From Desulfobaccales bacterium (GTDB lineage Bacteria; Desulfobacterota; Desulfobaccia; Desulfobaccales; 0-14-0-80-60-11): a stretch of 64,000 bases of DNA. Position 1 is the first letter of the stretch. Each line of letters opens with the position of its first letter. The notes under the pieces were generated by a model. The model was not told where the DNA came from and did no database searches. It saw nothing but the letters and a program-made list of their open reading frames with translations. The stretch covers positions 648 through 64,647 of the forward strand of contig JBEKDQ010000001.1 in NCBI GenBank assembly GCA_050014275.1, read 5' to 3'. A program made the position numbers and the translations under genes. This document shows positions 29,713 to 46,792 of this stretch, piece after piece.

Positions 29713-29778
29713 AATGTTATCTGGTTGGAAGGGCATAACAGGAATTTTTTGGGGAAGAGTTAATGATAAAGGGTGCCT

Positions 29779-31770
29779 ATGCTTGACCACCATCCAATAA
29801 AGCGGTTCCCGGGGTCTCGCCAAGAGCAGGACTACCAGGTCAGGACCGTCTGTCAGGAATGCGCCGTCGGTTGCGGTCTGGTGGCCCATGTCAAAGACGG
29901 CCGCATCGTGGATATTCAGGGGGAAGAGGAGCACCCCATTAGCCGGGGCAGGCTTTGTGCCCGTGGGACGGCCTTTGTCCAGGGGCTGACCCTCCCCGAG
30001 CGCCTCACCCAGCCCGCCAGCCGCCAGGATCGCCGGCAGGCCTTACAGCCCCTGGATGGCTGGAAGAGCGGCCTGGATCTCCTAGCCGAGCGGCTCCGCC
30101 ACCTAAAGGAGCGGCATGGTCCCAACGCCCTTCTCATCGGTTGCGACCTGGAGGGCGGCTTGGACTTTTACCTGGGGGCCATGCGCTTCGCCCAGCTCTG
30201 GGGGACCTCCCAGGTCTTTTATCCGCTGGGCGAACCCCTGGAGCCCTGGCCCTCCGGCCTGAACAGCCCGGCGGCGTCATGTTCCGACTGGATTCACAGC
30301 CGCTGCCTATTCCTGGTGGAGGCGGACCTGGCCGCCAGCCATCCCGTGGCCTGCAGTTGGGTCCAGGAGGCCCAACGCCGTGGGGCCCGGGTAGTGGCGG
30401 CGGACGCCCGCTTTACCGGCGCCCTGGCCAAGGCTGACGAGACCCTGAGAATCAAGCCCGAACAGGGCAACCTCCTGGGTCTGGCCCTCATGAAGCTTAT
30501 CCTGGCGGAGGGCGGCCAGGACGCCGCGGCCGTTGGGGCCGGCTTCACCGAAACTTCCCAATGGCAGGCCTCCTTTGAACAGTTGTCTTTGGAAGGCGTT
30601 GAGGCGGCCCTCGGGGTCCCCTTGGAAAGACTCCAGCACCTGGCCCGGCTCCTGGCTCAGCGGGGTCCGGTCACCGTGATCACCGGTAGGGAGTTGGCCG
30701 ATTTGCCGCACCATCACATCTGGCTAACCCTGGCCACGGCCATGGGCTGGGTAGGACGACCGGGCGGGGGTTGGTATCCCGTGGATGCCGGCGCCCCGCC
30801 GCTCAAGATCCATACCTATACGGGTGAAGCCAACACCCGGCCCGAAGGCGGTCACCGCGAAATCCCACCCAAACTGGCCGAGGTGAAAAGCCGGGCCGAC
30901 CAGCCCGTACGGGCCATCATCTGTTCAGGTAATTGTTTATATGACTATTTATCGCCCTTTGGGCGGTTGACGGAACAGGTAGACCTTATCGCCCACTTCG
31001 GCTCTTTCCCCAACGCCACCTGGGAACAAGCCTCCATGACCTTCCCCGCCGCCCTCTGGGCCGAACGGGACGGCCTGTCCTTCAGCAATGACCGATCCAT
31101 ACAATGGGGCACCAAGATTGTGGAGCCTCCGGACGGGTGTCGCTCGGGCCTGGACTTCTGGATGGTGTTGGCCCGGCGCTTCGGCTGGGAGGCCCACTTT
31201 CCCTGGGCCGGCGAAGATAGCAGGGCCGATCAGGCCGCCTTCTACTCCTGGCTCATGGCGCAAAGCCCCTTAACCGCCAAGTTGCAGGTGGACCAATTAC
31301 GGAGTCTGGAACCGGGCTCTCAGATCTTCTGGCCTGTGGGCAAAACCGTTCTGCCCAACGCCAGGTCGCCCTACAAGGGCAAGATTGTCCCGCACCCGGC
31401 CCCGGCGGCCCTGGCGCCCGGTGCAGAAACCGCCGAGACGGCAGACTATCCCCTGGCCTTCGAGGCAGTCCAGATAAGCTGCCGCTCCGGGGACGCCAGC
31501 CGTTTCTGGCCCTGGACCCGGGGGCTGTCCCGGGAGGACGCCGTCCAGATCAACCCGGAAACGGCCGATCTTCTCGGCATCGAAAATGGCGACGACGTCC
31601 TGGTGGAGACCCCCCGGGGCCGTTTGGCCGGCCGGGCCTGTCTCAGCCGCGCCGTGTCCCGCTGGCTGGTGGCCTCCCCCCACGGGGTGAGCGGCCTGAA
31701 GGCCCTGGTGCACAAAACGGATCAATCCCTGGATGAAGCTCGCCATCTGCTGAAAAAATTGAGCCTATGA
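29779..31770 (+). CDS. Cytoplasmic molybdopterin (bis-PGD) oxidoreductase catalytic subunit, substrate unknown
   Basis: ~663 aa. N-terminal FeS0 motif CQECAVGCGL…GRLCARG. MopB-like core and a C-terminal beta-barrel domain (…VQINPETADLLGIENGDDVLVETPRGRL…). No twin-arginine signal. The alternative GTG start is at 29773. Confidence 0.85.
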   Translation: MLDHHPIKRFPGSRQEQDYQVRTVCQECAVGCGLVAHVKDGRIVDIQGEEEHPISRGRLCARGTAFVQGLTLPERLTQPASRQDRRQALQPLDGWKSGLDLLAERLRHLKERHGPNALLIGCDLEGGLDFYLGAMRFAQLWGTSQVFYPLGEPLEPWPSGLNSPAASCSDWIHSRCLFLVEADLAASHPVACSWVQEAQRRGARVVAADARFTGALAKADETLRIKPEQGNLLGLALMKLILAEGGQDAAAVGAGFTETSQWQASFEQLSLEGVEAALGVPLERLQHLARLLAQRGPVTVITGRELADLPHHHIWLTLATAMGWVGRPGGGWYPVDAGAPPLKIHTYTGEANTRPEGGHREIPPKLAEVKSRADQPVRAIICSGNCLYDYLSPFGRLTEQVDLIAHFGSFPNATWEQASMTFPAALWAERDGLSFSNDRSIQWGTKIVEPPDGCRSGLDFWMVLARRFGWEAHFPWAGEDSRADQAAFYSWLMAQSPLTAKLQVDQLRSLEPGSQIFWPVGKTVLPNARSPYKGKIVPHPAPAALAPGAETAETADYPLAFEAVQISCRSGDASRFWPWTRGLSREDAVQINPETADLLGIENGDDVLVETPRGRLAGRACLSRAVSRWLVASPHGVSGLKALVHKTDQSLDEARHLLKKLSL

Positions 31771-32297
31771 CCAATATGACCAAGAGAAAGAGGAATATCC
31801 TGCTGGTGGAGGCCTCCCGCTGCATTGGCTGCTTCGGCTGCGAAGCGGCCTGCAAGATGGAACACGACCTCCCCGGAGAACCCAGGCCCATCCGAGTAAT
31901 CCAGGTGGGACCCTTGGGGGAAGGCGAGGAACTGCTCATGTCCTTCCAGCCCACCACCTGTTGCCACTGCGACCGGCCGGCCTGTGTCACCGCATGCCCC
32001 ACGGGGGCCATGCAGAAGCGGGAGGATGGCATCGTCTTTTCGGACCTGGAACTCTGCATCGGCTGCCAGACCTGCGCCGTGGCCTGTCCCTTCGGCGTCC
32101 CCCATCTCAACCCGGCCACCGGCAAGATCGCCAAGTGCGACGGCTGCCGGGAACGGGTGGACCAGGGCCTGTGGCCGGCCTGCGTGCTCAAGTGCCCCAC
32201 CGAGACCTTGATCTTCGGCGGTCCGGCCCGGGTGTTGCAGGAGATCGGGACCCAAGAAGCCCTGAAGGTGGCGAAGACCTTCACCCGGGAAGAATAG
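31767..32297 (+). CDS. Four-cluster 4Fe-4S electron-transfer subunit (DmsB/PsrB/FdhB-like)
   Basis: 176 aa. Has CIGCFGCEAAC, CCHCDRPACVTACP, CIGCQTCAVACP and CDGC…CVLKCP. ATGA overlap with the upstream gene. Confidence 0.85.
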   Translation: MTNMTKRKRNILLVEASRCIGCFGCEAACKMEHDLPGEPRPIRVIQVGPLGEGEELLMSFQPTTCCHCDRPACVTACPTGAMQKREDGIVFSDLELCIGCQTCAVACPFGVPHLNPATGKIAKCDGCRERVDQGLWPACVLKCPTETLIFGGPARVLQEIGTQEALKVAKTFTREE

Positions 32298-32306
32298 GAG
32301 TCCGGT

Positions 32307-32876
32307 ATGACCAGACTGACCGGCGCGGCGGCGGAGAAGGACTTTCTCACCCAGGTCATCGAAGCCAGCGGCCAGAACTTGTTGGAGTGCCTCCAGTGCG
32401 GCAAGTGCAGCGGCGGCTGCCCCATTTCTTCAGCCGAAGTGGGTGGCCCTCGGCGCCTCATCGCCGAGATCCTTTACGGCATGAAGGACAAGGCCCTCAA
32501 GGACCCCACCTGGTGGTACTGCGTCAGCTGCGGCACCTGCATGACCCGCTGCCCCGTGGAAATCAATATGTATCGCGTGGCCACCGTGCTCTGCGAGATT
32601 GCCGAAAATGAAAAGATCAAGCCTTGCGAGCCGGATATTCACCTGTTTGAGGAGCTCTTTTTGAAATCCGTGGAGAAATACGGCCGGGCCAAGGAACTCA
32701 AGGTCGTGATGAAATTCAACCTGCGCACTCTGCGGCCCTTCAAAGACCTGGGCCAGGGGCTGAGCCTGATGCTCAAGGGGGCCATCAATCCCAAAGAGAT
32801 GTTCAAGAAGAGCCCCCCGGACAAGCGCATCGCCCGGATTTTCTCCCGGGTGCAGGAAATAGAAGCGGGAGACTAG
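32307..32876 (+). CDS. hdrC: Heterodisulfide reductase subunit C-like protein
   Basis: 189 aa with two CxxCxxCxxxCP motifs (CLQCGKCSGGCP; CVSCGTCMTRCP). Confidence 0.8.
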   Translation: MTRLTGAAAEKDFLTQVIEASGQNLLECLQCGKCSGGCPISSAEVGGPRRLIAEILYGMKDKALKDPTWWYCVSCGTCMTRCPVEINMYRVATVLCEIAENEKIKPCEPDIHLFEELFLKSVEKYGRAKELKVVMKFNLRTLRPFKDLGQGLSLMLKGAINPKEMFKKSPPDKRIARIFSRVQEIEAGD

Positions 32877-32878
32877 CC

Positions 32879-33754
32879 ATGAAAGTCAGCTACTATCCCG
32901 GGTGTTCCCTGGAAGCCACCGGCAAGCCTTATAACGACTCCACCCAGGAAGTCTGCCGGGCCCTGGGGGTGGAACTGTTAGAGGTCCCCGACTGGGCTTG
33001 CTGCGGCTCCTCCCCGGCCCTGAAGATGAACGAGCTGCTCTCTGCCGCCCTCTCGGGCGTTAACCTGGCCCTGTTGGAGAAGCAGGAACCCGCCGACGTG
33101 GTGGCCCCTTGCCCCTTCTGCTATCGCCGGTTGTTGAGCGCCCAGGACGACATGGCCCGGGACCCGGAATTGAAAAAGCAGGTCCAGGAGGCCATCGAGG
33201 CGGACCTGGCCGGAAGCCTGCAAATCCATAACCTGGTATCCTTCCTGCGGGGAAAGGTGGGCCTGGCGGCCATTACCGCCCGTCTGATCAAGCCCCTGGC
33301 GGGCCTCAAGGTCGTTCCCTTCTACGGCTGCTACATGGTCAAGCCCAAACAGGTGACCCACTGCGAAGACCCGGAAGATCCCACCGCCCTGGACGAGATC
33401 CTGGCGGCCCTGGGGGCCGAGGTCCTGGACTGGGATTTCAAGACGGAGTGTTGCGGCGCCGGCCTGTCTCTCAGCAAAACCGAGAAGGTGGTCGAGCTTT
33501 CCGGGCGCCTGGTCCGGGAAGCGGCCTATCGCGGCGCCGACGCCATCGTGGTGGCCTGCCAACTCTGCCAGGCCAACCTGGATATGCGCCAGGGGCAGAT
33601 CGGCAAGCAAGATAAGAAGGAATATAACCTCCCCATCATTTACTTCACTCAGCTCATGGGATTGGCGCTGGGCCTGGCCCCCACGGCCCTGGGCCTCAAC
33701 CATCACCTGGTCGACCCCATACGCCTGCTGGAAAAAAAGGGATTAATCGGATGA
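32879..33754 (+). CDS. hdrB: Heterodisulfide reductase subunit B-like protein (two CCG domains)
   Basis: 291 aa. Contains YYPGCS…PDWACCGSSPA and FYGCY…TECCGAG, the duplicated CCG motifs that bind noncubane FeS clusters. Confidence 0.85.
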   Translation: MKVSYYPGCSLEATGKPYNDSTQEVCRALGVELLEVPDWACCGSSPALKMNELLSAALSGVNLALLEKQEPADVVAPCPFCYRRLLSAQDDMARDPELKKQVQEAIEADLAGSLQIHNLVSFLRGKVGLAAITARLIKPLAGLKVVPFYGCYMVKPKQVTHCEDPEDPTALDEILAALGAEVLDWDFKTECCGAGLSLSKTEKVVELSGRLVREAAYRGADAIVVACQLCQANLDMRQGQIGKQDKKEYNLPIIYFTQLMGLALGLAPTALGLNHHLVDPIRLLEKKGLIG

Positions 33755-36700
33755 GTAAAAAGGTTGGCGTCTATATCTGTCACTGCGGCACCAACATCGG
33801 CGACGTGGTGGACGTGGACAAGATCGCCGAAGAAATCGGCGCCGAAGACGAAGATGTGGTGGTCTGCCGCCACTACAAATATATGTGCTCCGAGCCGGGC
33901 CAGAAGTTGATCCGGGACGACGTGGCGGAGTTGAAGCTGGACCACGTGGTGGAGGCCTCCTGCTCTCCCAAGATGCACGAGCCCACCTTCCGCAACGCCG
34001 TGTCCCAGGCCGGCATGAACCAGTATATGTTCGAGATGGTCAACATCCGGGAGCACTGCTCCTGGGTCACCGAGAACCCGGAACTGGCCACCCAAAAGGC
34101 CAAGGCCCTGATCAAGGGCGGCATCGCCCGGGTGAAGCATCATCGGCCCCTGGTCGGTTCCTGGAAACCGGTCAATCCCAAGGCCTTGGTGGTGGGCGGT
34201 GGCATCGCCGGCATCACCACGGCCCTGAAGATCGCCAAATCCGGCTACAAGGTCTACCTGGTAGAAAAGGAGGAGATCATCGGCGGCCGCATGGCCCAGT
34301 TCGACAAGACCTTCCCCACCCTGGACTGCGCCGGCTGCACCCTGACCCCCAAGACCAGCGAAGTGGGGCGACATCCCAACATCGAGATTCTGACCAAGGC
34401 GGAAGTCGTCGAGGTCAGCGGCTTCGTGGGCAATTTCAAGGTCAAGATCCGCCAGCAGCCCCGCTATGTGCGGATGGACAAATGCACCGGCTGCGGCGAC
34501 TGCCAGAAGGTCTGCCCCATCGAGGTCGACAGCAAGTTTGAGCTGGACATGGCCAAACGGCACCCCATCAGCCGGCCCTTCCCCCAGGCCATCCCCAATA
34601 CCTATTCCATTATTCGCGCCGGTTCGCCGCCCTGCCAGTCGGCCTGCCCGGCCGGCGTCAATGTGGTGGGCTATATGAACCTGGCGGGCCTGGGGAAATT
34701 CGACGAGGCCCTGGCCCTGGTGCGGGAGCGCATGCCCTTTGCCGCCTCCTGCGGCCGCATCTGCTTCCATCCCTGCGAAAGCTCCTGCAAGCGGGGCCAG
34801 ATGGACAAACCTCTGGCCATCTGCCAGACCAAGCGCTTCCTGGGTGACCAGGAACTGGCCCAGGGCACGTTCGTCCATCCGGAAAAGCAGGAAGAGCGCC
34901 CGGAGCGTATCGCCCTGGTGGGAGGCGGCCCGGCCAGCCTATCCGCCGCCTACTACCTGGCCCTCATGGGCTTCAAGCCGGTGATCTTCGAGGCCGCGCC
35001 CGAAGCCGGCGGCTGGCTGCGCTACGGCATCCCCGAATACCGCCTGCCCAAGGCCATCCTCAAGCAGGAAGTGGACAACCTGGCCTCACTGGGCGTGGAA
35101 ATCCACTACAATACCCCCATCGGGCCGGGCCGCACCATTGACAACCTGATGACCAAAGAAGGGTTCAGCGCCGTCTTCCTCGGCGTGGGGGCCCAGGACG
35201 CCCTGCGCCTGCCGGTACCCGGGGCCGAGTCTGAAGGAGTGCACTGGGGCGTCGAATATCTGCGGGATTCGGCCATGGGCAAGGTTCCCGACCTTACCGG
35301 CAAACGGATGATCATCATCGGCGGCGGTAACGTAGCCGTGGACGCGGCCCGCACCGCCGTCCGGCAGGGCGCTACGCCGGTGGCCATGATCTCCCTGGAG
35401 GCCCGGGATGAGATGCCCGCCTCGGCCTGGGAAGTGGAGGAGGCCGAACATGAAGGTGTGCATTTCGAGCATCGCTGGGGGGTCAAGCAAATCCTCAGCC
35501 AGGACGGGAAGGTGACCGGCATCGAGCTCCGGGCCGTGGAGCGGGTCTTTGACGACCAGGGTCGCTTCGCCCCCAGCTATCTGGACGATCAACTCGCCAC
35601 CCGGGACGCCGACGCAGTAATCATGGCCATCGGCCAGAAGACCAATTTGAAGTTCCTCACCCCGGAGGACGGCGTCGCCCTGACGGAGCGCGGTCTCATC
35701 CAGGTGGACCCGGATACCCTGGCCACCAGTCGGCCCGGCGTCTTCGCCGGCGGCGACTGCACCCTGGGACCGGCCTCCTTCGTTCAGGCGGTGGCCAAGG
35801 GCCGGGAGGCGGCAGAATCGATTTACTCCTACCTGGTGCACGGCGGCTTGCGGGAAGTCACCCCCAAGGAAAGGCAGGTAGCCCCGGAGATCACCGCTGA
35901 TGAGCAGCGGCGGGCCCTGCCCATTCCCCGGCAGGAGATGCCCTGCCTGACGGCCCAGGAGCGCCGGGGCGGCTTCGCCGAAGTGGATCTGGGTTTCACC
36001 GCGGAGATGGCCCAGGCCGAGGGCCAGCGCTGCATCAGTTGCTCGCTTTGCTGCCAATGCGGCGAATGCGTGCGGGCCTGCGGTCCGGGCGCCATCGACC
36101 TGAAGGAACGGGAGCGGAGCCGGGAACTGGAGGTGGGGGCTATCGTCGTCGCCACCGGCGTCGACATCTTCGATGCCCACAAGTACCCGGAATACGGCCA
36201 TGGCAAATACCCCGACGTGCTCACCAACCTGCAGTTTGAGCGCCTGTGCAACGCCGCCGGCCCCACCGGGGGCAAGGTCATCCGGCCCAGCGACGGCAAG
36301 GTGCCCGAAAGCATCGTCTTCATCCAGTGCGTGGGCTCCCGGGACCGGGCCCGGGGGGGGGAGTACTGCTCCAAGGTCTGCTGCATGGTCTCCGCCAAGC
36401 AGCTCAGTATCTTCAAGCACCACAACCGCGAGGGTAAGGCCTACGTCTTTTATATCGATAACCGAACCGGCGGCAAGGGCTATGAAGAGTTCCTGCGCCG
36501 GGCCATCGAAGAGGAAGGCGCCACCTATATCCGGGGCCGGGTGGCCAAAGTCTTCCAGGAAGGCGGCCGCCTGGTGGTCAGGGGTGAAAATTCCCTGGTG
36601 GGCGGCACCGTCGACGTGGAGGCCGACATGGTGGTCCTGGCCACCGGCCTGACGCCCCAGAAGGACTACCTCAACGTGGCCCGGGCCCTGAACCTGGCCT

Positions 36701-37119
36701 CGGACAAAGACGGCTTCTTCATCGAGCTCCACCCCAAGCTGGGCCCGGTGGAGACTCCCCTGTCCGGCATCTTCCTGGCCGGCGGCTGCCAGGGCCCCAA
36801 GGACATCCCCGAGTCGGTGGCGCAGGGCGGAGCCGCGGCTGCCGAGGCCCTGGCCCTGTTCAGTATGGGGGAAGTGGAAGTGGAGCCCACCGTGGCCCAG
36901 GCGGACAGCGCCCTGTGCACCGGCTGCAAGACCTGCCTAAGCCTCTGCGCTTACAGCGCCATCTCCTTCAGCGAAGAAGGCAAGGTGGCGGTGGTCAATG
37001 AGGCCCTCTGCCAGGGCTGCGGCACCTGCGCGGCGGCCTGCCCGGCGGCGGCCCTCAAGGTGCAGCACTTCACCCCGGACCAAATCTTTGCCCAGATCGA
37101 AGGGATGCTGGCATCATGA
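33751..37119 (+). CDS. hdrA: Giant HdrA-like flavoprotein with embedded GltD/NfnB-like NAD(P)H-binding module (HdrL-type)
   Basis: 1122 aa. HdrA-type N-terminus (VYICHCGTNIG) and an FAD GxGxxG (VVGGGIAGIT). Inserted segment CQSACPAGVNV…CGRICFHPCESSC… followed by VGGGPASLSAAYYL…GGWLRYGIPEYRLPK and IIGGGNVAVDAA, which is GltD/NfnB-like. Then the HdrA C-terminal half with ferredoxin motifs (CISCSLCCQCGEC; CTGCKTCLSLC; CQGCGTCAAACP). Confidence 0.85.
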   Translation: MSKKVGVYICHCGTNIGDVVDVDKIAEEIGAEDEDVVVCRHYKYMCSEPGQKLIRDDVAELKLDHVVEASCSPKMHEPTFRNAVSQAGMNQYMFEMVNIREHCSWVTENPELATQKAKALIKGGIARVKHHRPLVGSWKPVNPKALVVGGGIAGITTALKIAKSGYKVYLVEKEEIIGGRMAQFDKTFPTLDCAGCTLTPKTSEVGRHPNIEILTKAEVVEVSGFVGNFKVKIRQQPRYVRMDKCTGCGDCQKVCPIEVDSKFELDMAKRHPISRPFPQAIPNTYSIIRAGSPPCQSACPAGVNVVGYMNLAGLGKFDEALALVRERMPFAASCGRICFHPCESSCKRGQMDKPLAICQTKRFLGDQELAQGTFVHPEKQEERPERIALVGGGPASLSAAYYLALMGFKPVIFEAAPEAGGWLRYGIPEYRLPKAILKQEVDNLASLGVEIHYNTPIGPGRTIDNLMTKEGFSAVFLGVGAQDALRLPVPGAESEGVHWGVEYLRDSAMGKVPDLTGKRMIIIGGGNVAVDAARTAVRQGATPVAMISLEARDEMPASAWEVEEAEHEGVHFEHRWGVKQILSQDGKVTGIELRAVERVFDDQGRFAPSYLDDQLATRDADAVIMAIGQKTNLKFLTPEDGVALTERGLIQVDPDTLATSRPGVFAGGDCTLGPASFVQAVAKGREAAESIYSYLVHGGLREVTPKERQVAPEITADEQRRALPIPRQEMPCLTAQERRGGFAEVDLGFTAEMAQAEGQRCISCSLCCQCGECVRACGPGAIDLKERERSRELEVGAIVVATGVDIFDAHKYPEYGHGKYPDVLTNLQFERLCNAAGPTGGKVIRPSDGKVPESIVFIQCVGSRDRARGGEYCSKVCCMVSAKQLSIFKHHNREGKAYVFYIDNRTGGKGYEEFLRRAIEEEGATYIRGRVAKVFQEGGRLVVRGENSLVGGTVDVEADMVVLATGLTPQKDYLNVARALNLASDKDGFFIELHPKLGPVETPLSGIFLAGGCQGPKDIPESVAQGGAAAAEALALFSMGEVEVEPTVAQADSALCTGCKTCLSLCAYSAISFSEEGKVAVVNEALCQGCGTCAAACPAAALKVQHFTPDQIFAQIEGMLAS

Positions 37120-37535
37120 GCGACTTTGAACCCAAGATCATCGCCTTTCTCTGTAACTGGTGCTCTTACGTGGCCGCGGACGCCGCCGGGGTCTCCCGCT
37201 TCGTCCAGAAGCCCAACGTCCGGGTGATCCGGGTGGCGTGCTCCGGCATGGTGGACCCGAGCTACATCCTCAAGGCCTTCGCCCAGGGGGCGGACGGCGT
37301 CCTGGTGGGCGGCTGCTGGCCGGGGGACTGCCACTACATCGCCGGCAATCACAAGGCCATGCGCCGGGCCCCACTCCTGAAAAAACTGCTTAGCGAAATG
37401 GGCGTGGAGGAAGGGCGCTTCCGCCTGCAATGGATCGCCGCTTCCGAACCCGGCCCCTATGCCAAGACCATCAATGAAATGACTGAAGTGATTCGCAAAC
37501 TAGGTCCGTTTCCCCTGAAAAGGAGCGCTGCGTGA
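37116..37535 (+). CDS. mvhD: MvhD/FlpD-like [2Fe-2S] electron-transfer protein
   Basis: 139 aa. Has IIAFLCNWCSY…RVACSG…GGCWPGDCHY, the MvhD signature. ATGA overlap with hdrA. Confidence 0.85.
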   Translation: MSDFEPKIIAFLCNWCSYVAADAAGVSRFVQKPNVRVIRVACSGMVDPSYILKAFAQGADGVLVGGCWPGDCHYIAGNHKAMRRAPLLKKLLSEMGVEEGRFRLQWIAASEPGPYAKTINEMTEVIRKLGPFPLKRSAA

Positions 37536-38539
37536 GCCGGGCGGAGAAGAAAAAGAAGCTGGCCGTCTATACCGCCACGGGATGCCGCGCCTGTGAGCAG
37601 GCCCTCTTGGACCTGAACTACGAAGTCAATGACCTGAGCCGCTTTGCCGAGATAGTCTTCTGGCCTTATATATTGGGCTCGACGTGGGCCGCCCTGGACG
37701 AGACCGAGGTGGATGTCGCCTTTTTCGCCGGGGCCATCCGCACTGCGGCGGATCGCCAGGCGGCCCTGAAGCTCCGGGAAAAGTCCCGGTTGCTGGTGGC
37801 CGTAGGGGCCTGCGCCGCCTTCGGGGGCCTGCCGGGGTTGGCCAATCTGGCGGCGCCGGCGCCGGAAGTCCCCGGCGCCGCCAGGTCCAACGGGGAACCG
37901 GCCCTTCCCGGGATCGAACCCCGGGTCTCGGCTCTGTCCCTGATCGTGCCGGTCGATTATGTCGTCCCAGGCTGCGTCCCGACCCAGAACCTCCTCTGGG
38001 CCGCCATGCTGGCCCTGGTCTGCCAGGGCGCCTCACCGGCCCGGCTCTCTTATGCCGCCGCCCGGCTGCCGGCGGCGCTGGCCGAGGCCATCGCCGCCGG
38101 CGTCCTGCCGCCCCGGGGCAGCACCTTTGCTGGCGAAAAGTCGGTCTGCGCCAGTTGCTCCCGGATCAAGGAGGAAAAGAAGTTTGGGACCTGCAAGCGC
38201 CCTTACCAGGAATACCAGGAAACCGGCCGCTGCCTGTTGGAGCAGGGTGTGATCTGCCAGGGCGTGGCCACCCAGGAAGGCTGCGGCGGCCTCTGCACCG
38301 GGGTGGGGATTCCCTGCCGGGGCTGCTTCGGCAAGGCCCCGGCCATCTTCGACCCCGGCGCCAAGATGGTGTCGGCCATCAGCTCCACCTTCGACTCCAG
38401 CAACCCCCAGGAGATCGCGGCGTTGGTGGAGAACTTCGTAGACCTGGCGGGCACCTTTTACCGCTACGTGTTGCCGAGCCAATGCGCCCTTTTGGTGACG
38501 CCCAGCAAGGTTGAGAAAGATGCAGACGATAACCTTTGA
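37532..38539 (+). CDS. Group-3 [NiFe]-hydrogenase small-subunit-like FeS protein (MvhG-like)
   Basis: 335 aa. Has the proximal-cluster pattern TGCRAC…GACAAFGG…VPGCVP and a C-terminal Cys-rich region (CASCS…C…C…CQG…CGGLC…CRGC). GTG start overlaps the mvhD stop. Confidence 0.75.
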   Translation: MSRAEKKKKLAVYTATGCRACEQALLDLNYEVNDLSRFAEIVFWPYILGSTWAALDETEVDVAFFAGAIRTAADRQAALKLREKSRLLVAVGACAAFGGLPGLANLAAPAPEVPGAARSNGEPALPGIEPRVSALSLIVPVDYVVPGCVPTQNLLWAAMLALVCQGASPARLSYAAARLPAALAEAIAAGVLPPRGSTFAGEKSVCASCSRIKEEKKFGTCKRPYQEYQETGRCLLEQGVICQGVATQEGCGGLCTGVGIPCRGCFGKAPAIFDPGAKMVSAISSTFDSSNPQEIAALVENFVDLAGTFYRYVLPSQCALLVTPSKVEKDADDNL

Positions 38540-39824
38540 TTCATTGCGCTGGCAGGAACAACCGGCCCGGGTCACCATCACGGTCAACGGTGGGCCGCCC
38601 CAGGTCTACTTTCAAAGAATCGCCCCCCGGGAAGTGGCGGCCCTGTGCCAGGGACGGCCGGTGGAGGAGTTGCCCCGGATCCTGGCCATCCTGTCTCCGG
38701 CCCATCATCTCTGCGCCGCCCGGGCCCTGGACCGGCTCTTTGGGGTGGAGCCGCCGCCGCTGGCCCTGAATATGCGGGAGGCCCTGCGCCAGGCCTTATT
38801 TTACCGGCATCACTTGCAGAAATTCTATTTTCTGCTCACTTCGCTGGAGAATCCCTTTATGGATTTCTGGTCCTCCGAGGCCCGCCGCGGGCTGCACACC
38901 ATCCCGCACCAGCTTTTTGACGACCTCCGGCGCCACGTGTCGCTGGCCCAGGAGGCGGCCGGCATCCTGGGGGGGCGGGCTGACCATCCGGTGACCGCGG
39001 TGGCCGGCGGGGTGAGCCGTTACCTGAAAGAGGACAACTACCCGCGGCTGGCCGAAATCGCTGCGGCCTGCCGGAACTATGGCCTGCGGCTGGCCGAGTT
39101 CCTCCGGGAAGAGGTCTTGGCTGAGGGGAAAATGGCGGATCTCCTGGAGCTGGCAACCGTGCCCCTGGCCACCCTGGCCCTGGGGCCCGAACCCGACAGT
39201 CTGATCTTGAGGGACGTTGCGGGCCAGGAAACGGCCCGTTTCGCCGCCGCTGCCCTCTTCGAAAAAATCGGGCTGCATCATGAGACCTGGACCTATGAAC
39301 CTTTTGCCTTCCTCCGGGATAAGGGCTGGAAAGACTTGGGCGCCGAGCCGATGGACAGCCTCTTCTTCGTCGGCCCCCTGGCCCGCCTGAACAATGGTGC
39401 GCCCCTGGCCGCGCCTTTGGCCGAGGCTGAGCGCCAACGGCTGATTGCGGCCCTGGGGCCCTTCCCTCATTTCAGTGTGGCGGCGGCCTATTGGGCCTTG
39501 CTGGTGGAACTGCTGGAGGCGGCGGAGCACCTGGTCGTCCTGTGCGAGGTGGAAAAGCTGACCGGTCCGGCCCTGCGCACCATTCCCGCCGGCCCGGGCC
39601 GGGCAGGCCATGCCGCCCTGGAGGCGCCCGAGGGCCTCATCTACCACCATTTTCAAGCCGATGAGCACGGCCTGGTCCGGGAGGCCCAAGTCCTGGAGGC
39701 GGCTACGGAAAATAATGGACTTTTCGGACTCCTGACCCGGCAGACGGTGGAGGCTGCCCTGGCCCGGAAACAACCCTGGGAGGAGACCAAAGAGAGGATC
39801 GAATTGAGCCTGCTGCCTTTTTAA
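38520..39824 (+). CDS. [NiFe]-hydrogenase large-subunit homolog lacking all Ni-Fe cysteine ligands (pseudo-hydrogenase subunit)
   Basis: ~434 aa. Retains the large-subunit landmarks EELPRIL…, GGRADHPVTAVAGG and LEAPEGLIYHHF…ATENN. The N-terminal RxCGxCxxxH position reads AILSPAHH. The C-terminus ends …KERIELSLLPF where DPCxxCxxH is expected. Only four isolated Cys, none in a CxxC pair. Confidence 0.7.
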   Translation: MQTITFDSLRWQEQPARVTITVNGGPPQVYFQRIAPREVAALCQGRPVEELPRILAILSPAHHLCAARALDRLFGVEPPPLALNMREALRQALFYRHHLQKFYFLLTSLENPFMDFWSSEARRGLHTIPHQLFDDLRRHVSLAQEAAGILGGRADHPVTAVAGGVSRYLKEDNYPRLAEIAAACRNYGLRLAEFLREEVLAEGKMADLLELATVPLATLALGPEPDSLILRDVAGQETARFAAAALFEKIGLHHETWTYEPFAFLRDKGWKDLGAEPMDSLFFVGPLARLNNGAPLAAPLAEAERQRLIAALGPFPHFSVAAAYWALLVELLEAAEHLVVLCEVEKLTGPALRTIPAGPGRAGHAALEAPEGLIYHHFQADEHGLVREAQVLEAATENNGLFGLLTRQTVEAALARKQPWEETKERIELSLLPF

Positions 39825-39867
39825 TCGAATCGTCTCGGGCCTGCAGGCCTCAGGAGGACTAGCGTTC

Positions 39868-40359
39868 ATGTTGAAGACCTTGATTGTGGATGCCCAGAAA
39901 TGTTCCGGGTGCCGTTCTTGCGAGAACTACTGCGCCCTCAAGCACGGGGGCTTATGCAACCCCGCCAGGGGTAGGATTCACGTGGTCAAGTGGGAACGGG
40001 AAGGGATCTTCGTGCCCATCAACTGCCGGCGCTGCGAGAAGCCGGCCTGCGAGCAGGTCTGTCCCAAGCACGCCACCTACCGCAACTTCGACACCGGCGC
40101 CCTGGAGGTGGATGCGGCCCGCTGCATCGGCTGCCTGAACTGCGTCTCCGCCTGTCCCTTCGGGGCCACCTTCGTGGACCCGGAGAGCGGCGAGGTCCTG
40201 AAGTGCGACCTGTGCGACGGCGACCCCACCTGCGTCAAGGTCTGCCCCACCGGGGCCTTGACTTTTGAAGACCTCTCCAAAGAGGCTTACCTCAAGCTGA
40301 TCGCCTGTGCGGACCAGATTCCCCTGCTGGTCCGGGAGGCTATCGGGAGGCAGGAATAA
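39868..40359 (+). CDS. Multi-cluster 4Fe-4S ferredoxin-like subunit (AorA/BamC-like) paired with AOR copy 2
   Basis: 163 aa. Has CSGCRSCENYC, CRRCEKPACEQVCP, CIGCLNCVSACP and CDLCDG…CVKVCP. Its stop overlaps the start of the next gene (TAATG). Confidence 0.85.
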   Translation: MLKTLIVDAQKCSGCRSCENYCALKHGGLCNPARGRIHVVKWEREGIFVPINCRRCEKPACEQVCPKHATYRNFDTGALEVDAARCIGCLNCVSACPFGATFVDPESGEVLKCDLCDGDPTCVKVCPTGALTFEDLSKEAYLKLIACADQIPLLVREAIGRQE

Positions 40360-42248
40360 TGTACGGCTGGGTTGGCAAGATACTTAAAGTCGATCTTACC
40401 GAAGGCAAGATCAGCACGGAGCCCACCGAGGCTTACGTGGACGAATACATTGGCGGCCGCGGCCTGGGGGTCAAGCTGATCTACGATAACTATAAGCCCG
40501 GCACCGGCGCCCTGGAGCCGGGCAATCCGCTGCTGTTCAATACCGGGCCGCTCTCCGGCACCGCTATGCCCGGTTCGGGCCGGGTGGACGTCACGGCCCT
40601 GTCCCCCATGAGCAACCTCAGGGCCAAGTCCAACTTCGGAGCCTATTGGGGCCCGGAGCTCAAATTCAACGGCTTCGACCATCTGTTCATCACCGGCAAG
40701 GCCGAGAAACCCTGCTACCTCTGGATCCACGACGGCAAGGTGGAGATTCGCCCCGCCGAACACCTCTGGGGTCAGGATACCCACGAGACCCAGAAGCTGA
40801 TCCAGCAAGAGCTGGGCGACCCGGAGATCAAGGTGGTCTGCATCGGCCCGGCGGGGGAAAACCTGGTGCGCTTCGCCTGTCTGATCAGCGAGACTGGCGA
40901 CGCCGCCGGACGCACCGGTATGGGGGCGGTGATGGGCTCCAAGAACCTGAAGGCCGTGGCGGTACGCGGCACCGGCAGCGTGCGGGTGGCCCACCCCGAG
41001 AAGTTCCTGGAACTCTCCATCCAGGTGAACCGAGAAGTCCGGGAAAGCCCCGCCTACCAGGAGCTCTCCTCCTGGGGCGTGGCCCGGGGCGTGCAGATGA
41101 TGTATCAGATGGGCTTCTTCCCGGTGGGCTACTTCGAAGACGTCTGCGTTGACGAAATCTGCCAGAAATATGCGGCCCCCGCCTACGTCGAGCAGCATCA
41201 GCTCAAGAACGTCGGCTGCTTCAACTGCCCGGGACGCTGCATGAACTTCCTGTCGGTGCCAGGCTTGGGCAAAGGCGTGACCTCCTGCGAGCCCTTCAGC
41301 GGCTTCACCGGCGCCGTCTGGAACCTGGACATGGACACCTTCTGGGAGGCGACCCTCCTGGTCAATAAGCTGGGCATCGACTGCACCGAGACCTCGGCCT
41401 CCATCGGCCTGCTGATGGAGCTCTTCCACGAAGGCATCATCACCGAAAAGGAGACGGACGGCATCCCTATGGTCCGGGGCAGCAAGGAGGCCATCCTCAC
41501 CACCATCCGCAAGATCGCCGCCCGGGAGGGCTACGGCGAGTTGCTGGCCCAGGGCCAGAAGGCCTTCACCAGCCAGATCGGCCCGGCGGCGGTGGAGAAG
41601 TTGGACCTGGTCAAGGGCCTGGCGCCCCATGCCTATGAATTCCGCTCCTTCCACGGCACCGCCCTGATGCAGGCCGTGGGCCACCGGGGCGACCCGCTGC
41701 CGCTGCGGGGCAGCCTCCTGGAAGTGGACTGGAACCACGCCCCGGAATGGTTCCAGCAAGTGGCTAAAGAACAGTTCGGCAGTGAAGAGGCGGCCATCCC
41801 CACCTCTTACGAGGGCAAGGCCATGTCCGCGGTGATCTCCGAACACCTGGAGCGGGTGCCAGACAACCTGGGCATCTGCAAGTGGATCTACGGCCTCTTC
41901 GCCTATCAAGATGTCAACATGGCCCTCCGCCTGTTCAACCTGGCCACCGGCAAGGACTGGGATATGGCGCAACTCCTTAAGGTCTCCGAAAAGGTGCGCA
42001 ACCTGGAGCGCATGTTCGACGTGCGCCAGGGCCTGACCCGCAAGGACGACGATCTGCCCAAGAAGTTCTTTGAGGTGCCCCTCTCCAAGGGCAAATTTGC
42101 CGGGGAGGTCCTGGACCGGGCCAAGTTCGAAAAGATGAAGGACGAGTACTATGAGATCCGGGGCTGGAATAAAGAAACCGGCATCCCCACCCGGGAGAAG
42201 CTGGTGGAGCTGGGCCTAGAGGCGGTGGCCGACGAGGTGCTGAACTAG
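40359..42248 (+). CDS. Tungsten aldehyde:ferredoxin oxidoreductase-family protein (AOR copy 2, long form)
   Basis: 629 aa. AOR N-domain (GKILKVDLTEGKIS…GGRGLG), then …GRTGMGAVMGSKNLKA… and pterin-binding domains. Clearly divergent from copy 1 and ~50 aa longer. Confidence 0.9.
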   Translation: MYGWVGKILKVDLTEGKISTEPTEAYVDEYIGGRGLGVKLIYDNYKPGTGALEPGNPLLFNTGPLSGTAMPGSGRVDVTALSPMSNLRAKSNFGAYWGPELKFNGFDHLFITGKAEKPCYLWIHDGKVEIRPAEHLWGQDTHETQKLIQQELGDPEIKVVCIGPAGENLVRFACLISETGDAAGRTGMGAVMGSKNLKAVAVRGTGSVRVAHPEKFLELSIQVNREVRESPAYQELSSWGVARGVQMMYQMGFFPVGYFEDVCVDEICQKYAAPAYVEQHQLKNVGCFNCPGRCMNFLSVPGLGKGVTSCEPFSGFTGAVWNLDMDTFWEATLLVNKLGIDCTETSASIGLLMELFHEGIITEKETDGIPMVRGSKEAILTTIRKIAAREGYGELLAQGQKAFTSQIGPAAVEKLDLVKGLAPHAYEFRSFHGTALMQAVGHRGDPLPLRGSLLEVDWNHAPEWFQQVAKEQFGSEEAAIPTSYEGKAMSAVISEHLERVPDNLGICKWIYGLFAYQDVNMALRLFNLATGKDWDMAQLLKVSEKVRNLERMFDVRQGLTRKDDDLPKKFFEVPLSKGKFAGEVLDRAKFEKMKDEYYEIRGWNKETGIPTREKLVELGLEAVADEVLN

Positions 42249-43244: not shown

Positions 43245-44198
43245 TGTCTTGGGAAGGGGGCCAGGTCTTCCACAGGCGAGACGCCTGTGCCACTGGCCCT
43301 GTCCCCCTCCCTAACAGGTTGGCCGAAAGTCTAATCGATGAAGGGGCCATCGACCTGGTGGGCCGCATCATGCACTTCGCCAAAGCACCAAAGGCCAAGA
43401 AGGGGCGCCTGGGCTTGCGGAGGAAGACCCCAATTGGCCATGGACTGAGATAGATTATCAATTTGAAATAATTCAAAATATCCTGATATGGGGTTCGTTG
43501 GGGCCAAAACGGGAAGCGCCAGCGCCGGCTGGAGGCAAGGCCCACCTTCGGAAGAAGCATCCTTCGGTGCCGATTAATTATTTATAATTATAATCAATAC
43601 TTAACCAATACCACCTCTGATTTAACAATCTATCGGCGGTGGGAGGTGTTGGCGCAGATTTTGCTTAATAGAAATCAGCCATTCTATCTTTCGACGGAGG
43701 AAGGGGGTAGGTAACCACAAGCGCGGTGATCCTCTGTATTTGGGGATTTTCTTTGATTCATCTGTGTCAAAGAGCCATCGATCCCAAAATGGAGGAAAGA
43801 CATGATCCCCCGGCATGCTCCTGGTCTAGTCGCTCATTTTGTGGGTCGTGGTGGGTCTGTGGATTCCGGCCTTCTCCCTTATGCTGACCGGTGCCCTGCT
43901 GCTTTGCCATTGAGCTTGAGGTTTTTCTGTCTTGGTTTAGAAAGGTTGATTAACCCCCAGCTTCCGGATCGGAAACGGGACCAAGGGCCCAGGGGTCTCC
44001 CGCCTGCTACCACGTCTTACTGCAGGCGCTTTCACAGGTGAACAGGAAACCCCCAGGTTCTACTTCACCAGAGGAAAGGGGGCTGATACGGCTGCACTAT
44101 GGCTGCACAACCCATTAGTCAAGGGGCAGTGTCGCAAGGATTGGATTGACTCGTGAAGGCAAATTTCTTCACCCAAAGCCATGAGGAGGCATAAAGCT

Positions 44199-45707
44199 AT
44201 GGTAGAGTACGTTTATGAACCGACAAAATGGAATGAGATGAAGGCACCGATTCAAGGCGGGAGAGACACCTATCAAGCCAAGAGTTGGAATCCCACCTCC
44301 AAAAAATGGGGGCCCTGGACGAAAGACGGGCCGGCCAAGGTCTGGTTTTCCGAGGCGAATGCCACCAACTGGACCGAGTCCATGATCTGCAAAACCAAAG
44401 ACCTCTTCTATGAAGCCAAACTTAATGAGTGCTTCCAGAAAGGCGATGAGGTGGCGATCAAGATCCATTACGGCGAATGGAACCGGACGGCCATTCTCCG
44501 GCCGGAGTACATTGCCGCCATCATCGAGGAAGTGAAATCCTGCGGCGGCAATCCCTATGTAGTGAATGACACCACCCTGTCCTACCACACCTATAACAGC
44601 ATGGCGATTTCCCAATACCAGATGGAAGGCGCCATCCGCCATGGTTACACCGATGCCACCTTCGGCTGCCCGGTGCTTATCGCCGACGGCTACTCCGGCG
44701 AGGATGATTACCGGGTAGAGCTTCCCGAGGGCCTCATCCTCAAAGAGACCTTCATCGGCCGGGCCATTGCCGAAGCCGATGCCATGATCGTCATCGGACA
44801 TGCCCGGGGCCATTCGATCACGATGTATGGCGGCGTTTTGAAGCAATTGGGCATCGGCTGCCAGTCGAAGCGCGGCAAGTATATCACCCACCTGGCCCAC
44901 TGGGGCGACCCCCACGACGCCATCGGCTGGCCGAAGTTCACGGATAAGTGCCCGGGCAAGGCCTGCAAGTTCCACCAGATGTGCGACGATTCCTGTCCCC
45001 GCAATGCCCACCACGTCTTCGAGCACGGAAAGGTGTGGTATCCGGAGCGCTGCCGGCTCTGCTACTCCTGCCAGGTTACCTGCATCTTCTCCGGCATGAC
45101 CGGCATCACCTTCGAGGAAAACTACTTCCCCAATGCCATGATCGCCCATGCCGACGCTGCCCTGGGGGCCCTCAAATGCTTCGATCGGGGCAAAGTAGGC
45201 TTCATCAACTGCGCCATCGACGTGGTCCCGGAATGTGACTGTTTCCCCTGGGCCGGTCTTGCCATCTGCCCGGATGTGGGCATCCTGGCCAGCCGGGACA
45301 TGGTTGCCCTCGAAAATGCCACCCTGGACCTCATCGACAATGCTCCCATAACCCCCGGTTCGGTGGCCCAGGAAAAGGGATTGAAGCCCGGAGACGACAA
45401 ATTTAAGGTTGTCAACGGTTTCAGCCCCCGCATCACGATGGCGGCGGCGGAAAAGATCGGCTGTGGCACCGGGAAATACGAGATGGTCAATTATGAACCC
45501 ATCTTGAACCCGGAAAATGCCATGAAGTGGCAGATCCGGAAAGGCGGCATCGCCAACCACCGGCCCACCACCGTCCGCCTGCGGGAGGTGTTCAGAAAGC
45601 ATGACCTGGCCACGGAAGTCATGCCTTTCCGGCGGACGGCCTACAACAAGGAGTGGGTCTGGGACAACTGGAAGGAGTATGACCCTCTCAAGGGTGCAAA
45701 GGCTTAA
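44199..45707 (+). CDS. DUF362-domain Fe-S protein (COG2768-like) with inserted ferredoxin-type cysteine motifs
   Basis: ~502 aa from the ATG 9 nt downstream of GAGGAGG. DUF362-like core (…VAIKIHYGEW…, …VIGHARGH…), plus CPGKACKFHQMCDDSCP and CRLCYSCQVTC motifs. Confidence 0.65.
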   Translation: MVEYVYEPTKWNEMKAPIQGGRDTYQAKSWNPTSKKWGPWTKDGPAKVWFSEANATNWTESMICKTKDLFYEAKLNECFQKGDEVAIKIHYGEWNRTAILRPEYIAAIIEEVKSCGGNPYVVNDTTLSYHTYNSMAISQYQMEGAIRHGYTDATFGCPVLIADGYSGEDDYRVELPEGLILKETFIGRAIAEADAMIVIGHARGHSITMYGGVLKQLGIGCQSKRGKYITHLAHWGDPHDAIGWPKFTDKCPGKACKFHQMCDDSCPRNAHHVFEHGKVWYPERCRLCYSCQVTCIFSGMTGITFEENYFPNAMIAHADAALGALKCFDRGKVGFINCAIDVVPECDCFPWAGLAICPDVGILASRDMVALENATLDLIDNAPITPGSVAQEKGLKPGDDKFKVVNGFSPRITMAAAEKIGCGTGKYEMVNYEPILNPENAMKWQIRKGGIANHRPTTVRLREVFRKHDLATEVMPFRRTAYNKEWVWDNWKEYDPLKGAKA

Positions 45708-45795
45708 GGTAAATCATTTCACTGGGGAGGGGGGATCCCCTCCCCAAGCTTGTTAATGAAGATTATATTTATATTTAGAAAAAGGTGCGGGTCAC

Positions 45796-46770
45796 ATGAG
45801 GGAAGTATTGTGGGTCGATATCCGGGGCATGTCAGCGGAAAATAGTGTGCCCCACAAGCTTACCCGCCTTTTGCAAGAGTCCGGCGGTTTAGAAGGGCTG
45901 TCCGAGGGAATGAGAGTCTCCCTGAAGATTAATACCTCGGAGGATGGCTATGAGTATGGCCTGCGACCGGTTTTTTTCCGGACCGTGGCCGAAATAGTCA
46001 ACCGCGTTACCAAGGTGCGTCCCACTATTTGTGATGGCATAAAGTTAGTCGATTATTGGCGCCGGGCTGCCGGGAAAAGATCTTCTGCGGGGAAAACCTT
46101 CCTGGAAGTGGCCCGGAAACAAGGGTACGGCAACGATACCCTGGGAGGCAACTTTGTCATCAACGGCGGCTTCAGCGGAGATGAAGGCAATCTTTATTCC
46201 GCCGACCTGGACGACTCCGTTGTCGGCGGGGTTGAGGTGGGTACCGCCGTCTGCCGCAGCGACACTTTATTTGTGCTGTCTCATGTCACGCTGCACCCGC
46301 TCTTTGGCATGAGCGGAGCTTTGCTCAACGGCGGGTTTGACTGTCTCATCGGCCGGGAAAAGACCCGAATCCTCAAAGGAATCAATCCATATCTGTTCAA
46401 TGGCAGCTCCCCTCCCGGCACAGAGCTGTTAGAGTTTCAACGGCGCGCCCTGGAATGCCTGCTCAGCGTCCGGAAATCCGTGGAAGATCTGGTATTCTAT
46501 GTCAATTATCTCTGGGATGTGACCCCGCAGCCGGAATACTTTCCTTACAGCCAAACCCCGGTGGTCGAAAATTTGGGCTTCCTGGCTTCCCCTGATCCGG
46601 TGGCGCTGGATGCCGCCAGTTTCTCTTTACTGCGGGAAAGATGGGAAGCCAAAGCAAATCAGCAAGATCTCCCTGGATTCACGAGCAACCTGGATTTTTT
46701 AAGAGTGCTGCAGGTTGCCGAGCTTTTAGGAATGGGCCGCGCCAGTTTCAGTGTCAGGGAGCTGTCCTAA
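45796..46770 (+). CDS. DUF362-like protein lacking the ferredoxin insert
   Basis: 324 aa. Similar layout to the previous protein (…VSLKINTSE…, …VLSHVTLHPLFGMSGA…) but without Cys clusters. The assignment is tentative. Confidence 0.45.
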   Translation: MREVLWVDIRGMSAENSVPHKLTRLLQESGGLEGLSEGMRVSLKINTSEDGYEYGLRPVFFRTVAEIVNRVTKVRPTICDGIKLVDYWRRAAGKRSSAGKTFLEVARKQGYGNDTLGGNFVINGGFSGDEGNLYSADLDDSVVGGVEVGTAVCRSDTLFVLSHVTLHPLFGMSGALLNGGFDCLIGREKTRILKGINPYLFNGSSPPGTELLEFQRRALECLLSVRKSVEDLVFYVNYLWDVTPQPEYFPYSQTPVVENLGFLASPDPVALDAASFSLLRERWEAKANQQDLPGFTSNLDFLRVLQVAELLGMGRASFSVRELS

Positions 46771-46792
46771 TCCTACACCCGACCTGGAGGAC

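Follow-up and report, generated by a model that had tools for sequence, protein, structure and literature searches.

What becomes of a [NiFe] hydrogenase once the ligands of its metal site have gone, and for what would its subunits be kept? The question is raised by a gene pair in a 64,000-nucleotide stretch of DNA from a Desulfobaccales bacterium (assembly GCA_050014275.1, contig JBEKDQ010000001.1, positions 648 to 64,647), called the window in what follows. The two genes encode proteins similar to MvhG and MvhA, the small and large subunits of a [NiFe] hydrogenase, and they are the seventh and eighth genes of a ten-gene operon (29773-42248, + strand). Our data suggest that the MvhA-like protein has ceased to bind Ni-Fe and is unable to activate H2, which would then be no electron donor at this subunit, and that the pair is a former group 3c hydrogenase kept as a non-catalytic iron-sulfur (FeS) relay and scaffold in a soluble complex. 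Taken jointly, these two statements are in our judgement probably right, with moderate confidence. The pair is laid out as follows.

37532-38539, + strand: MvhG-like small subunit, 335 aa (MvhG 5odc_E, E = 1e-48)
38520-39824, + strand: MvhA-like large subunit, 434 aa (ATG at 38520, alternative TTG at 38511, stop at 39824)

The lost Ni-Fe site

Homology and fold place the MvhA-like protein among [NiFe] large subunits, closest to MvhA/VhuA. Its PDB sequence matches are, in order, MvhA of Methanothermococcus thermolithotrophicus (5odc_F, E = 8e-37), a VhuA-type chain (9sfi_g, E = 1e-32) together with Methanothermobacter MvhA, and then HoxH, and its best NCBIfam match is VhuA. The AlphaFold2 model, made with an alignment of 40 family members, is confident (predicted local distance difference test, pLDDT, 88.8; predicted template modelling score, pTM, 0.91), and Foldseek returns MvhA 5odc_F as its top match (template modelling score, TM, 0.86), followed by HoxH and HydL. 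The top 50 Foldseek matches are all large subunits of [NiFe] or [NiFeSe] hydrogenases with group 3 enzymes leading, and no NuoD/Nqo4 chain is among them. The scores against the curated models lie below their cut-offs, with 22.5 bits for PF00374 (cut-off 25.8) and 111 bits for NCBIfam VhuA (cut-off 800).

An earlier note on this DNA, made from its letters and open reading frames (ORFs), had described the large subunit as a hydrogenase protein without any of its four cysteine ligands, and what it observed was found again. The two ORFs had been placed correctly, and the strings quoted from the protein (EELPRIL, LPRILAILSPAHHL, GGRADHPVTAVAGG, LEAPEGLIYHHF, ATENN and the terminal KERIELSLLPF) are all present. 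There are four lone cysteines (C43, C65, C184 and C342) and no CxxC pair, and C43 is the only one of them kept among orthologs. The N-terminal motif RxCGxCxxxH (L1) is replaced, as had been claimed: the HMMER alignment with 5odc_F sets PRILAILSPAHH opposite PRICGICQVAHH, and RILAILSPAHH stands against the RICGICQVAHH of MvhA, with Leu at the positions of both N-terminal ligands. The protein also stops before the C-terminal motif DPCxxCxxH (L2) and lacks the protease-cleaved extension, since it ends with ...IELSLLPF opposite ...VETAIRSF in a MAFFT alignment with canonical relatives, one residue short. In agreement with the note, Pfam scans of ~54 ORFs across the window found no hyp maturation or endopeptidase genes.

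The changes reach well beyond the ligands themselves. We compared 59 members of the clade with 31 canonical sequences, counting canonical residues if they were at least 85% conserved, and found Leu at position 55 in 83% and at position 58 in 88% of the clade, where the canonical residue is Cys in 100%. The catalytic arginine of the PRG motif is gone (EAPRG has become E[AS]P[EQ]G, with R371 changed to Q/E), and further canonical residues lost in the clade are R11 of the RxEGH motif (R11W), G14, GFE 38-40, PD 108-109, R140, E252, R327 (to L), T395 and R432 (to L), the arginine preceding DPC. Where the ligands and second-sphere residues used to be, the clade has mainly Leu, Trp and Ala. Most replacements are hydrophobic, and no new cluster of Cys, His or Lys is evident. 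The residues that it has in common with true hydrogenases (P52, R53, H62, H63, GGR..HP, GPLAR, E368/P370/G372 and N398) look like determinants of the fold, while about 30 positions conserved in the clade alone, including R46, E49, E145, R153, R167, R176, E255 and W257, could be interface residues.

Could the protein still be a hydrogenase, its motifs hidden by an error, its C-terminal peptide encoded separately as in VhuU of Methanococcus, or its metal held by unconventional ligands? Split large subunits do exist: both the VhuA model and 9sfi_g have 418 aa, with the C-terminal peptide encoded separately. It is also reported, in the title of one study (PMC9295118), that a tungsten aldehyde:ferredoxin oxidoreductase (AOR) uses H2 as electron donor, and the complex as a whole might still touch H2 at another site. 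However, the 44 nucleotides downstream of the gene, where the earlier note had wished a frameshift to be excluded, hide no motif in the other frames, and neither R.CG.C...H nor DPC..C..H occurs in the six frames of the whole 64-kb window. The identical 434-aa protein is encoded on 21 contigs, with loci shown from four separate metagenome samples, and together with the two scans this rules out a sequencing frameshift or a hidden terminus. A separate VhuU-like peptide is ruled out as well, as DP[C/U]xxCxxH is absent from every frame, and since the N-terminal cysteine pair is missing too, a split C-terminus could not restore the Ni-Fe site. L1 and L2 are both missing from all 56 family loci, whereas 32 of 32 canonical neighbours have DPCxxCxxH and a C-terminal extension, and the family has lost the catalytic arginine and second-sphere residues in addition. 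Judged by these sequences, the notion of a surviving hydrogenase is largely refuted, and we find it hardly credible.

The missing site is a property of a whole family. In each of the 120 closest clusters (90% identity level, down to 48% identity) the protein is of similar length, about 430-460 aa, without the L1 cysteines and with a C-terminus of the form LL[PAS]x, the final residue being F, Y or W in nearly all. An alignment of 40 sequences has 44 invariant positions, and the C-terminus is conserved up to the final residue. A representative search returned 52 clusters (50% identity level) at E <= 1e-30, in which Cys-less sequences come out on top and those with the canonical motifs start only at about E-40 and at no more than 35% identity; the nearest canonical relatives are at most 31% identical to the family. 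The nearest Cys-bearing relatives sit in mvhD-mvhG-mvhA(+hdr) loci. A sister Cys-less clade (P0151, P0271 and P0149) is 33-39% identical, likewise ends before DPC, has proteins of 460-468 aa (L089, 10001-11386; L090, 10001-11407; the L numbers are our labels for loci) and comes with a matching operon, AOR included.

A scan in which each GTDB species was represented by one genome gave 383 relatives, and about 50 species-level genomes had the Cys-less form. The carriers are nearly all metagenome-assembled genomes (MAGs) of Desulfobacterota, among them Desulfobaccales with one protein 91% identical to that of the window, and otherwise Desulfomonilaceae, Desulfatiglandales, Desulfobacterales, Syntrophobacteraceae, Syntrophaceae, Desulfarculaceae and an Olavius symbiont; two carrier MAGs are labelled 'Anaeromyxobacter'. 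As separate observations, the sister-clade operons are flanked by genes for Radical-SAM/SPASM, FdhD and MoCF_biosynth-domain proteins and by a GT2-methyltransferase gene, and more distant group-3-like large-subunit homologs (P0152, P0176, P0177, P0178 and P0192) lack some or all of the Ni-Fe cysteines. The Ni-Fe site was probably lost several times.

The operon and the selection on its genes

The operon is tightly packed, with start/stop overlaps at FdhA/B, HdrB/L, HdrL/MvhD, MvhD/MvhG, MvhG/MvhA and WorS/WorL. Its promoter-like element and remaining genes are the following.

29697-29712, + strand: sigma-54-type promoter-like element TGGCATAAACATTGCC, 77 nt upstream of the FdhA-like start
29773-31770, + strand: FdhA-like subunit of molybdopterin-oxidoreductase fold, 665 aa (Pfam Molybdop_Fe4S4, Molybdopterin, Molydop_binding)
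31767-32297, + strand: FdhB/DmsB-like four-cluster ferredoxin, 176 aa (Pfam Fer4_11; NCBIfam DmsB, NrfC, FDH-beta-like)
32307-32876, + strand: HdrC (Pfam Fer4_8, Fer4_17; NCBIfam CoB-CoM heterodisulfide reductase subunit C)
32879-33754, + strand: HdrB, with two CCG domains as presumed disulfide-reducing site (Pfam CCG x2; NCBIfam HdrB)
33751-37119, + strand: HdrL, 1122 aa, an HdrA with an inserted GltD/NfnB-like NAD(P)H-FAD-2x[4Fe-4S] module (Pfam Pyr_redox_2, Fer4_20)
37116-37535, + strand: MvhD adaptor (Pfam FlpD, E = 2e-50)
39868-40359, + strand: WorS/AorA-like polyferredoxin, 4x[4Fe-4S] (PDB 8c0z_C, 9mqx_E)
40359-42248, + strand: WorL/AOR, a tungsten aldehyde:ferredoxin oxidoreductase, 629 aa (Pfam AFOR_N, AFOR_C)

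HdrA, an HdrB with two CCG domains, HdrC and an MvhD with the FlpD domain are thus co-encoded, and their cofactor ligands are in good order. In HdrL, a name taken from PMC2702500, two NCBIfam HdrA2 stretches flank the NAD(P)-binding GltD-like match (residues ~290-795), and the FeS ligands are intact. The 8 cysteines of HdrC, the cysteines of both CCG domains of HdrB and the 16 cysteines of the FdhB-like protein (48 sequences) are all 100% conserved, and MvhD, about 75% identical across the clade, has 5 conserved cysteines, the presumed [2Fe-2S] ligands and one extra. The polyferredoxin is found in nearly all loci (70-78% identity) with its 16 cysteines conserved; of its best PDB matches, 8c0z_C is AorA, which carries the Fe-S clusters in the aldehyde oxidoreductase of Aromatoleum, and 9mqx_E is taken to be WorS, while BamC scores lower. 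Directly adjacent to it, the AFOR_N and AFOR_C domains of WorL match, by score, 9mqx_D, 1aor and 8c0z_A and only lower down BamB 4z3w. An identity of the operon AOR as a BamB-type benzoyl-CoA reductase was ruled out, given that true AORs score far above 4z3w. Neither Pfam scans nor locus comparison revealed a membrane subunit encoded in the operon.

The gene order is conserved to a high degree. By tblastn, essentially all of the ~45 distinct loci with enough flank have the nine-gene core (FdhA-like to polyferredoxin), and to the question, raised by the earlier note, whether the Cys-less gene always neighbours hdrA and mvhD, the neighbour survey answers that it always follows hdrL-mvhD-mvhG. 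About two thirds of the loci have WorL after the polyferredoxin, with identities of 65-80% that mostly fall at 74-80%. Of 40 loci, a set that includes the window and several duplicate copies of one contig, 34 have a match to TGGCAY-N5-TTGCW at 40-231 nt before the start of the FdhA-like gene, against a background of 0.01 matches per 330 nt. A scan of the operon for sigma-70 promoters and terminators gave fewer matches than shuffled sequence, and in an Rfam scan no RNA, a Moco/tungstopterin riboswitch included, reached the gathering thresholds.

MvhA-like is not alone in having lost its catalytic residues. The FdhA-like subunit, with FdhF of HDCR (7qv7_S) as best PDB match, keeps its N-terminal [4Fe-4S] cysteines C27, C30, C34 and C62 (97-100% conserved), and yet the Cys-His of 7qv7_S aligns to Pro-Leu in a PLGEPLEP-type loop that is variable among 36 orthologs. 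The orthologs share a conserved GGGWYP[LV][DE][AS]G-type stretch at the position at which FdhH has PxRGQNNVQG with the catalytic arginine. Both the Sec/Cys-His pair and the arginine of a formate dehydrogenase are thus missing, which rules out a true formate dehydrogenase as electron donor. By its residues, FdhA-like joins MvhA-like as a fossil catalytic subunit and calls NuoG or QrcB to mind.

MvhA-like and FdhA-like are the fastest-evolving proteins of the operon in most pairs compared, and the suspicion may arise that the large subunit is a relic on its way out, a pseudogene-like passenger kept only by its position in the operon. With identities of 45-52% and 40-50%, compared with 74-80% in WorL, the two rank among the least conserved products and have the highest ratio of non-synonymous to synonymous substitution rates (dN/dS) in most pairs; the ratio is 0.20-0.31 for FdhA-like and 0.06-0.14, among the lowest in the operon, for WorL, which with HdrL and MvhD forms the slowest group (0-0.18). 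Nevertheless, the pairwise dN/dS of 0.19-0.38 for MvhA-like means clear purifying selection, and the gene is in frame and full-length in more than 100 clusters (90% identity) and in the sister clade. The 44 invariant positions, the conserved C-terminus and the confident, compact AlphaFold2 model also speak against a decaying gene, and we consider a mere relic very unlikely.

Possible roles: relay, scaffold or new pocket

The earlier note had proposed a soluble, group-3c-derived pseudo-hydrogenase within an Hdr complex, and this is supported by the best matches to MvhA/VhuA, the mvh/hdr gene order and the lack of a membrane subunit. Its statement that the small subunit retains the cluster cysteines also holds, in that every proximal, medial and distal Cys of MvhG-like matches 5odc_E. 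The 12 cluster cysteines (C18, C21, C94, C148, C206, C209, C234, C242, C251, C255, C262 and C265) are 100% conserved in 45 orthologs, as is an extra one, C318. The data lean towards a relay or scaffold as the role of the MvhGA-like pair. In favour of a relay are the cluster cysteines, about 100% conserved in MvhG-like, MvhD, HdrB, HdrC, FdhB-like and WorS, and the evolutionary rates, with the two fossil subunits fastest in most pairs and WorL, HdrL and MvhD slowest.

The products of the ten genes would form a soluble Hdr-type aldehyde/carboxylate oxidoreductase complex, bifurcating or confurcating and linked to NAD(P)H. In such a complex both the site for NAD(P)H and the flavin at which electrons bifurcate would lie in HdrL, HdrBC would be the disulfide-reducing arm, perhaps acting on a DsrC-like disulfide, and the WorS polyferredoxin would connect the tungsten aldehyde/carboxylate site of WorL to the Hdr core. 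MvhGA-like and FdhBA-like may be fossil input modules that serve as FeS relays or scaffolds docked via MvhD. The aldehyde/carboxylate couple has a very low potential (E0' about -580 mV), and at the tungsten it could be coupled with NAD(P)H and the disulfide in either direction. We infer the physical assembly, the electron path and the substrates of this complex. There is a precedent in WorABCSL, where WorSL nanowires feed a bifurcating module (PMC12318220), and another in the Bam benzoyl-CoA reductase, where an AOR-family enzyme sits on an Hdr-like core with an MvhD-like adaptor to a separate input module.

Several points weigh against a relay or scaffold reading, at least in its simplest form. 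The proximal-cluster ligands are 100% conserved, which a purely structural role leaves unexplained: next to an inert large subunit, with no site beside it, this cluster would lead nowhere, and although folding needs may account for such perfect conservation, it keeps alive the alternative of a refilled pocket. About one third of loci have no WorL in the operon, and a single MvhD would have to connect two modules, Mvh-like and Fdh-like. The designation '3c-derived' is based on best matches and gene order. All carriers are MAGs, no isolate with the Cys-less form having been seen in the scan with one genome for each GTDB species.

The alternative of a refilled pocket supposes that the former Ni-Fe pocket has a new job and accommodates another cofactor, or else a small redox substrate, in electron exchange with the proximal [4Fe-4S] cluster, in analogy with the quinone site of complex I at the NuoD/NuoB interface; we regard it as unlikely. 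It would make sense of proximal cysteines that are fully conserved despite the lost Ni-Fe site and of the about 30 positions conserved in the clade alone, and truncation at LLPF, by removing the nine-residue DPCxxCxxH, should free space in the pocket. On the other hand, the replacements look like hydrophobic filling with no new His, Lys or Cys motif, and the dN/dS, one of the highest of the operon, is not what one would expect of a catalytic subunit. A candidate for the cofactor is nickel-pincer nucleotide (NPN), for the window contains a full NPN synthesis set 12-21 kb upstream of the operon.

14814-15647: LarE
15731-16567: LarB
16564-17925: LarC

Six distinct loci (L008, L053, L019, L037, L027 and L033) have LarB/LarC genes, with or without LarE and a GT2 gene, no more than 10 kb from the operon and in an orientation that differs from that of the window, and none of about 32 canonical Mvh loci has Lar genes nearby. 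LarA was not found in the window or in L008, L019, L027 and L037, and NPN is known to serve non-LarA enzymes discovered via LarC neighbourhoods (PMC13524815). Yet most loci have no Lar genes within 10 kb, and where these occur they lie outside the operon, beside genes for an Fe-type alcohol dehydrogenase (Fe-ADH), a PAS kinase, a FIST protein and a second AOR. The Fe-ADH directly adjoins LarC in L019 and L037 and is a more conventional candidate for an NPN user. That the emptied MvhA-like pocket holds a new cofactor or substrate fed by the proximal cluster, with larBCE-made NPN as the most striking candidate, is in our opinion distinctly unlikely; if true, NPN in the pocket would be a new kind of hydride/redox site on a hydrogenase scaffold.

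Some features of the neighbourhood are of interest in their own right. The Fe-ADH belongs to a module with a PAS histidine kinase and a sigma-54 NtrC-type activator (window 5976-9763), and in the Desulfomonilaceae loci the Fe-ADH and the kinase directly adjoin LarC/LarB (L019, 16312-18727; L037, 16313-18740). The module may regulate the operon, with its ADH a candidate for NPN dependence. The window has another gene of the AOR family (18006-19757), with only about 25% identity to the operon AOR; a FIST-domain protein and a PAS hybrid kinase/response regulator are encoded after it (18006-23704), and FIST and kinase genes adjoin the operon in many loci. The window locus further has alcohol dehydrogenases, pterin-synthesis genes (MoaA, ThiF/MoeB) and a sigma-54 two-component system, which fits a metabolism of alcohols, aldehydes and acids. 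At 44181-47785, two DUF362 proteins are followed by a Mrp/NUBPL-type P-loop ATPase, whose His-rich C-terminal tail (...HDHHNHHHHQNHHQGDECCGHLH...) is similar to those with which nickel chaperones bind metal; only the closest relatives (L001-L003, L009) were seen to have this set. The kdpABC potassium-transport operon at 58259-62713 is ordinary and has no relation to the MvhA-like finding.

In many loci two ~225-aa sulfite/nitrite-reductase-like proteins are encoded downstream of the operon, in the regions given below, and these are absent from the window.

L005, 14857-16746: sulfite/nitrite-reductase-like region
L007, 14202-16274: sulfite/nitrite-reductase-like region
L008, 11994-13678: sulfite/nitrite-reductase-like region
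L019, 14002-15368: sulfite/nitrite-reductase-like region
L027, 14193-15855: sulfite/nitrite-reductase-like region

A SCO4226-like protein is also encoded in L005, L007 and L008 and a rubredoxin in L005 and L007, neither of them in the window. All these proteins may hint at a sulfur-related acceptor of the HdrBC arm.

Known systems and significance

The closest known system is MvhAGD-HdrABC (5ODC), which provides the best sequence and fold match of both subunits and has the same mvhD-mvhG-mvhA order beside hdrA, hdrB and hdrC, the clusters of MvhG and the cysteines of MvhD and HdrB/C being kept. The window operon differs in that the Ni-Fe ligands, the catalytic arginine and the C-terminal extension are gone, and in that it has the 1122-aa HdrL with its NAD(P)H module in addition to FdhAB-like and WorSL genes.

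The pair can be compared to NuoD/NuoB, Ehr and Mbx, which are likewise derived from hydrogenases, have lost the metal site and have been retained in redox complexes. Complex I also contains NuoG, a formate dehydrogenase-like subunit without the molybdenum cofactor, and thus has two fossil modules, as does the window operon. However, NuoD, Ehr and Mbx descend from membrane-bound group 4 enzymes and have membrane subunits, whereas the window pair comes from soluble group 3, and while NuoB keeps the proximal cluster only, MvhG-like retains all three. Neither group 4 ancestry nor membrane antiporter-like partners nor reduction to a proximal cluster was found for the Mvh-like pair. The MvhA-like clade is parallel to the known hydrogenase-derived non-hydrogenases in the loss of the metal site with retention of the protein, but it belongs to none of the Nuo, Ehr and Mbx families. 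The homologs excluded by HydDB are Nuo, Ehr, NARF and HmdII only, and in the bifurcation survey of Poudel et al. Cys-less homologs were filtered out and left undescribed.

For the last two genes the closest solved relatives are WorABCSL of Acetomicrobium mobile (9MQX) and AorABC of Aromatoleum aromaticum (8C0Z), in which the polyferredoxin wires tungsten sites to a flavin module, but in the window the partner is HdrL-HdrBC-MvhD and not BfuABC or AorC. The context types described for WOR clade 87 are BF (BfuABC), N (the FAD/NAD subunit AorC), M (none) and U (a membrane quinone module), none of them linked to Hdr (PMC12318220); the Hdr, Mvh-like and Fdh-like partners found here correspond to none of these. 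The class II benzoyl-CoA reductase BamBCDEFGHI resembles the window operon in placing the tungsten AOR-family BamBC on the HdrA/HdrBC-like core BamED, with the MvhD-like BamF linking the input module. The window WorL is closer to true aldehyde oxidoreductases than to BamB, and where the Bam input is NuoEFG/HydABC-like, the window has degenerate Mvh and Fdh pairs with the NAD(P)H site inside HdrL. The HdrL clusters of Desulfobacterium autotrophicum and Syntrophobacter fumaroxidans (Sfum_0819-0824) share HdrL, MvhD, HdrBC and an FdhB-like FeS protein, although that of S. fumaroxidans is described without MvhA, and the descriptions make no mention of a Cys-less MvhA/MvhG pair, a degenerate FdhA or linked WorSL. 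No description of the Cys-less MvhA clade, or of an Hdr-linked AOR with Mvh- and Fdh-like subunits, was found in the full-text literature, subscription-only papers being outside the search, and an operon that combines two fossil modules with an Hdr-linked tungsten AOR appears to be undescribed.

There is also a practical side to the loss of the Ni-Fe site. The JGI annotation calls the MvhA-like proteins 'F420-non-reducing hydrogenase large subunit', and owing to this label reconstructions of peat, groundwater and sediment Desulfobacterota may wrongly assign them a cytoplasmic H2 metabolism; testing for the RxCGxC and DPCxxC motifs would clear the misannotation. The pair would be a soluble group 3 counterpart to the path taken by complex I, and thereby a second, independent case in which to ask why such fossils persist. 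An undescribed Hdr-type partner for WorSL would widen the list of flavin-based bifurcating systems, and would give a testable route for the metabolism of alcohols, aldehydes and acids in uncultured sulfate reducers and syntrophs.

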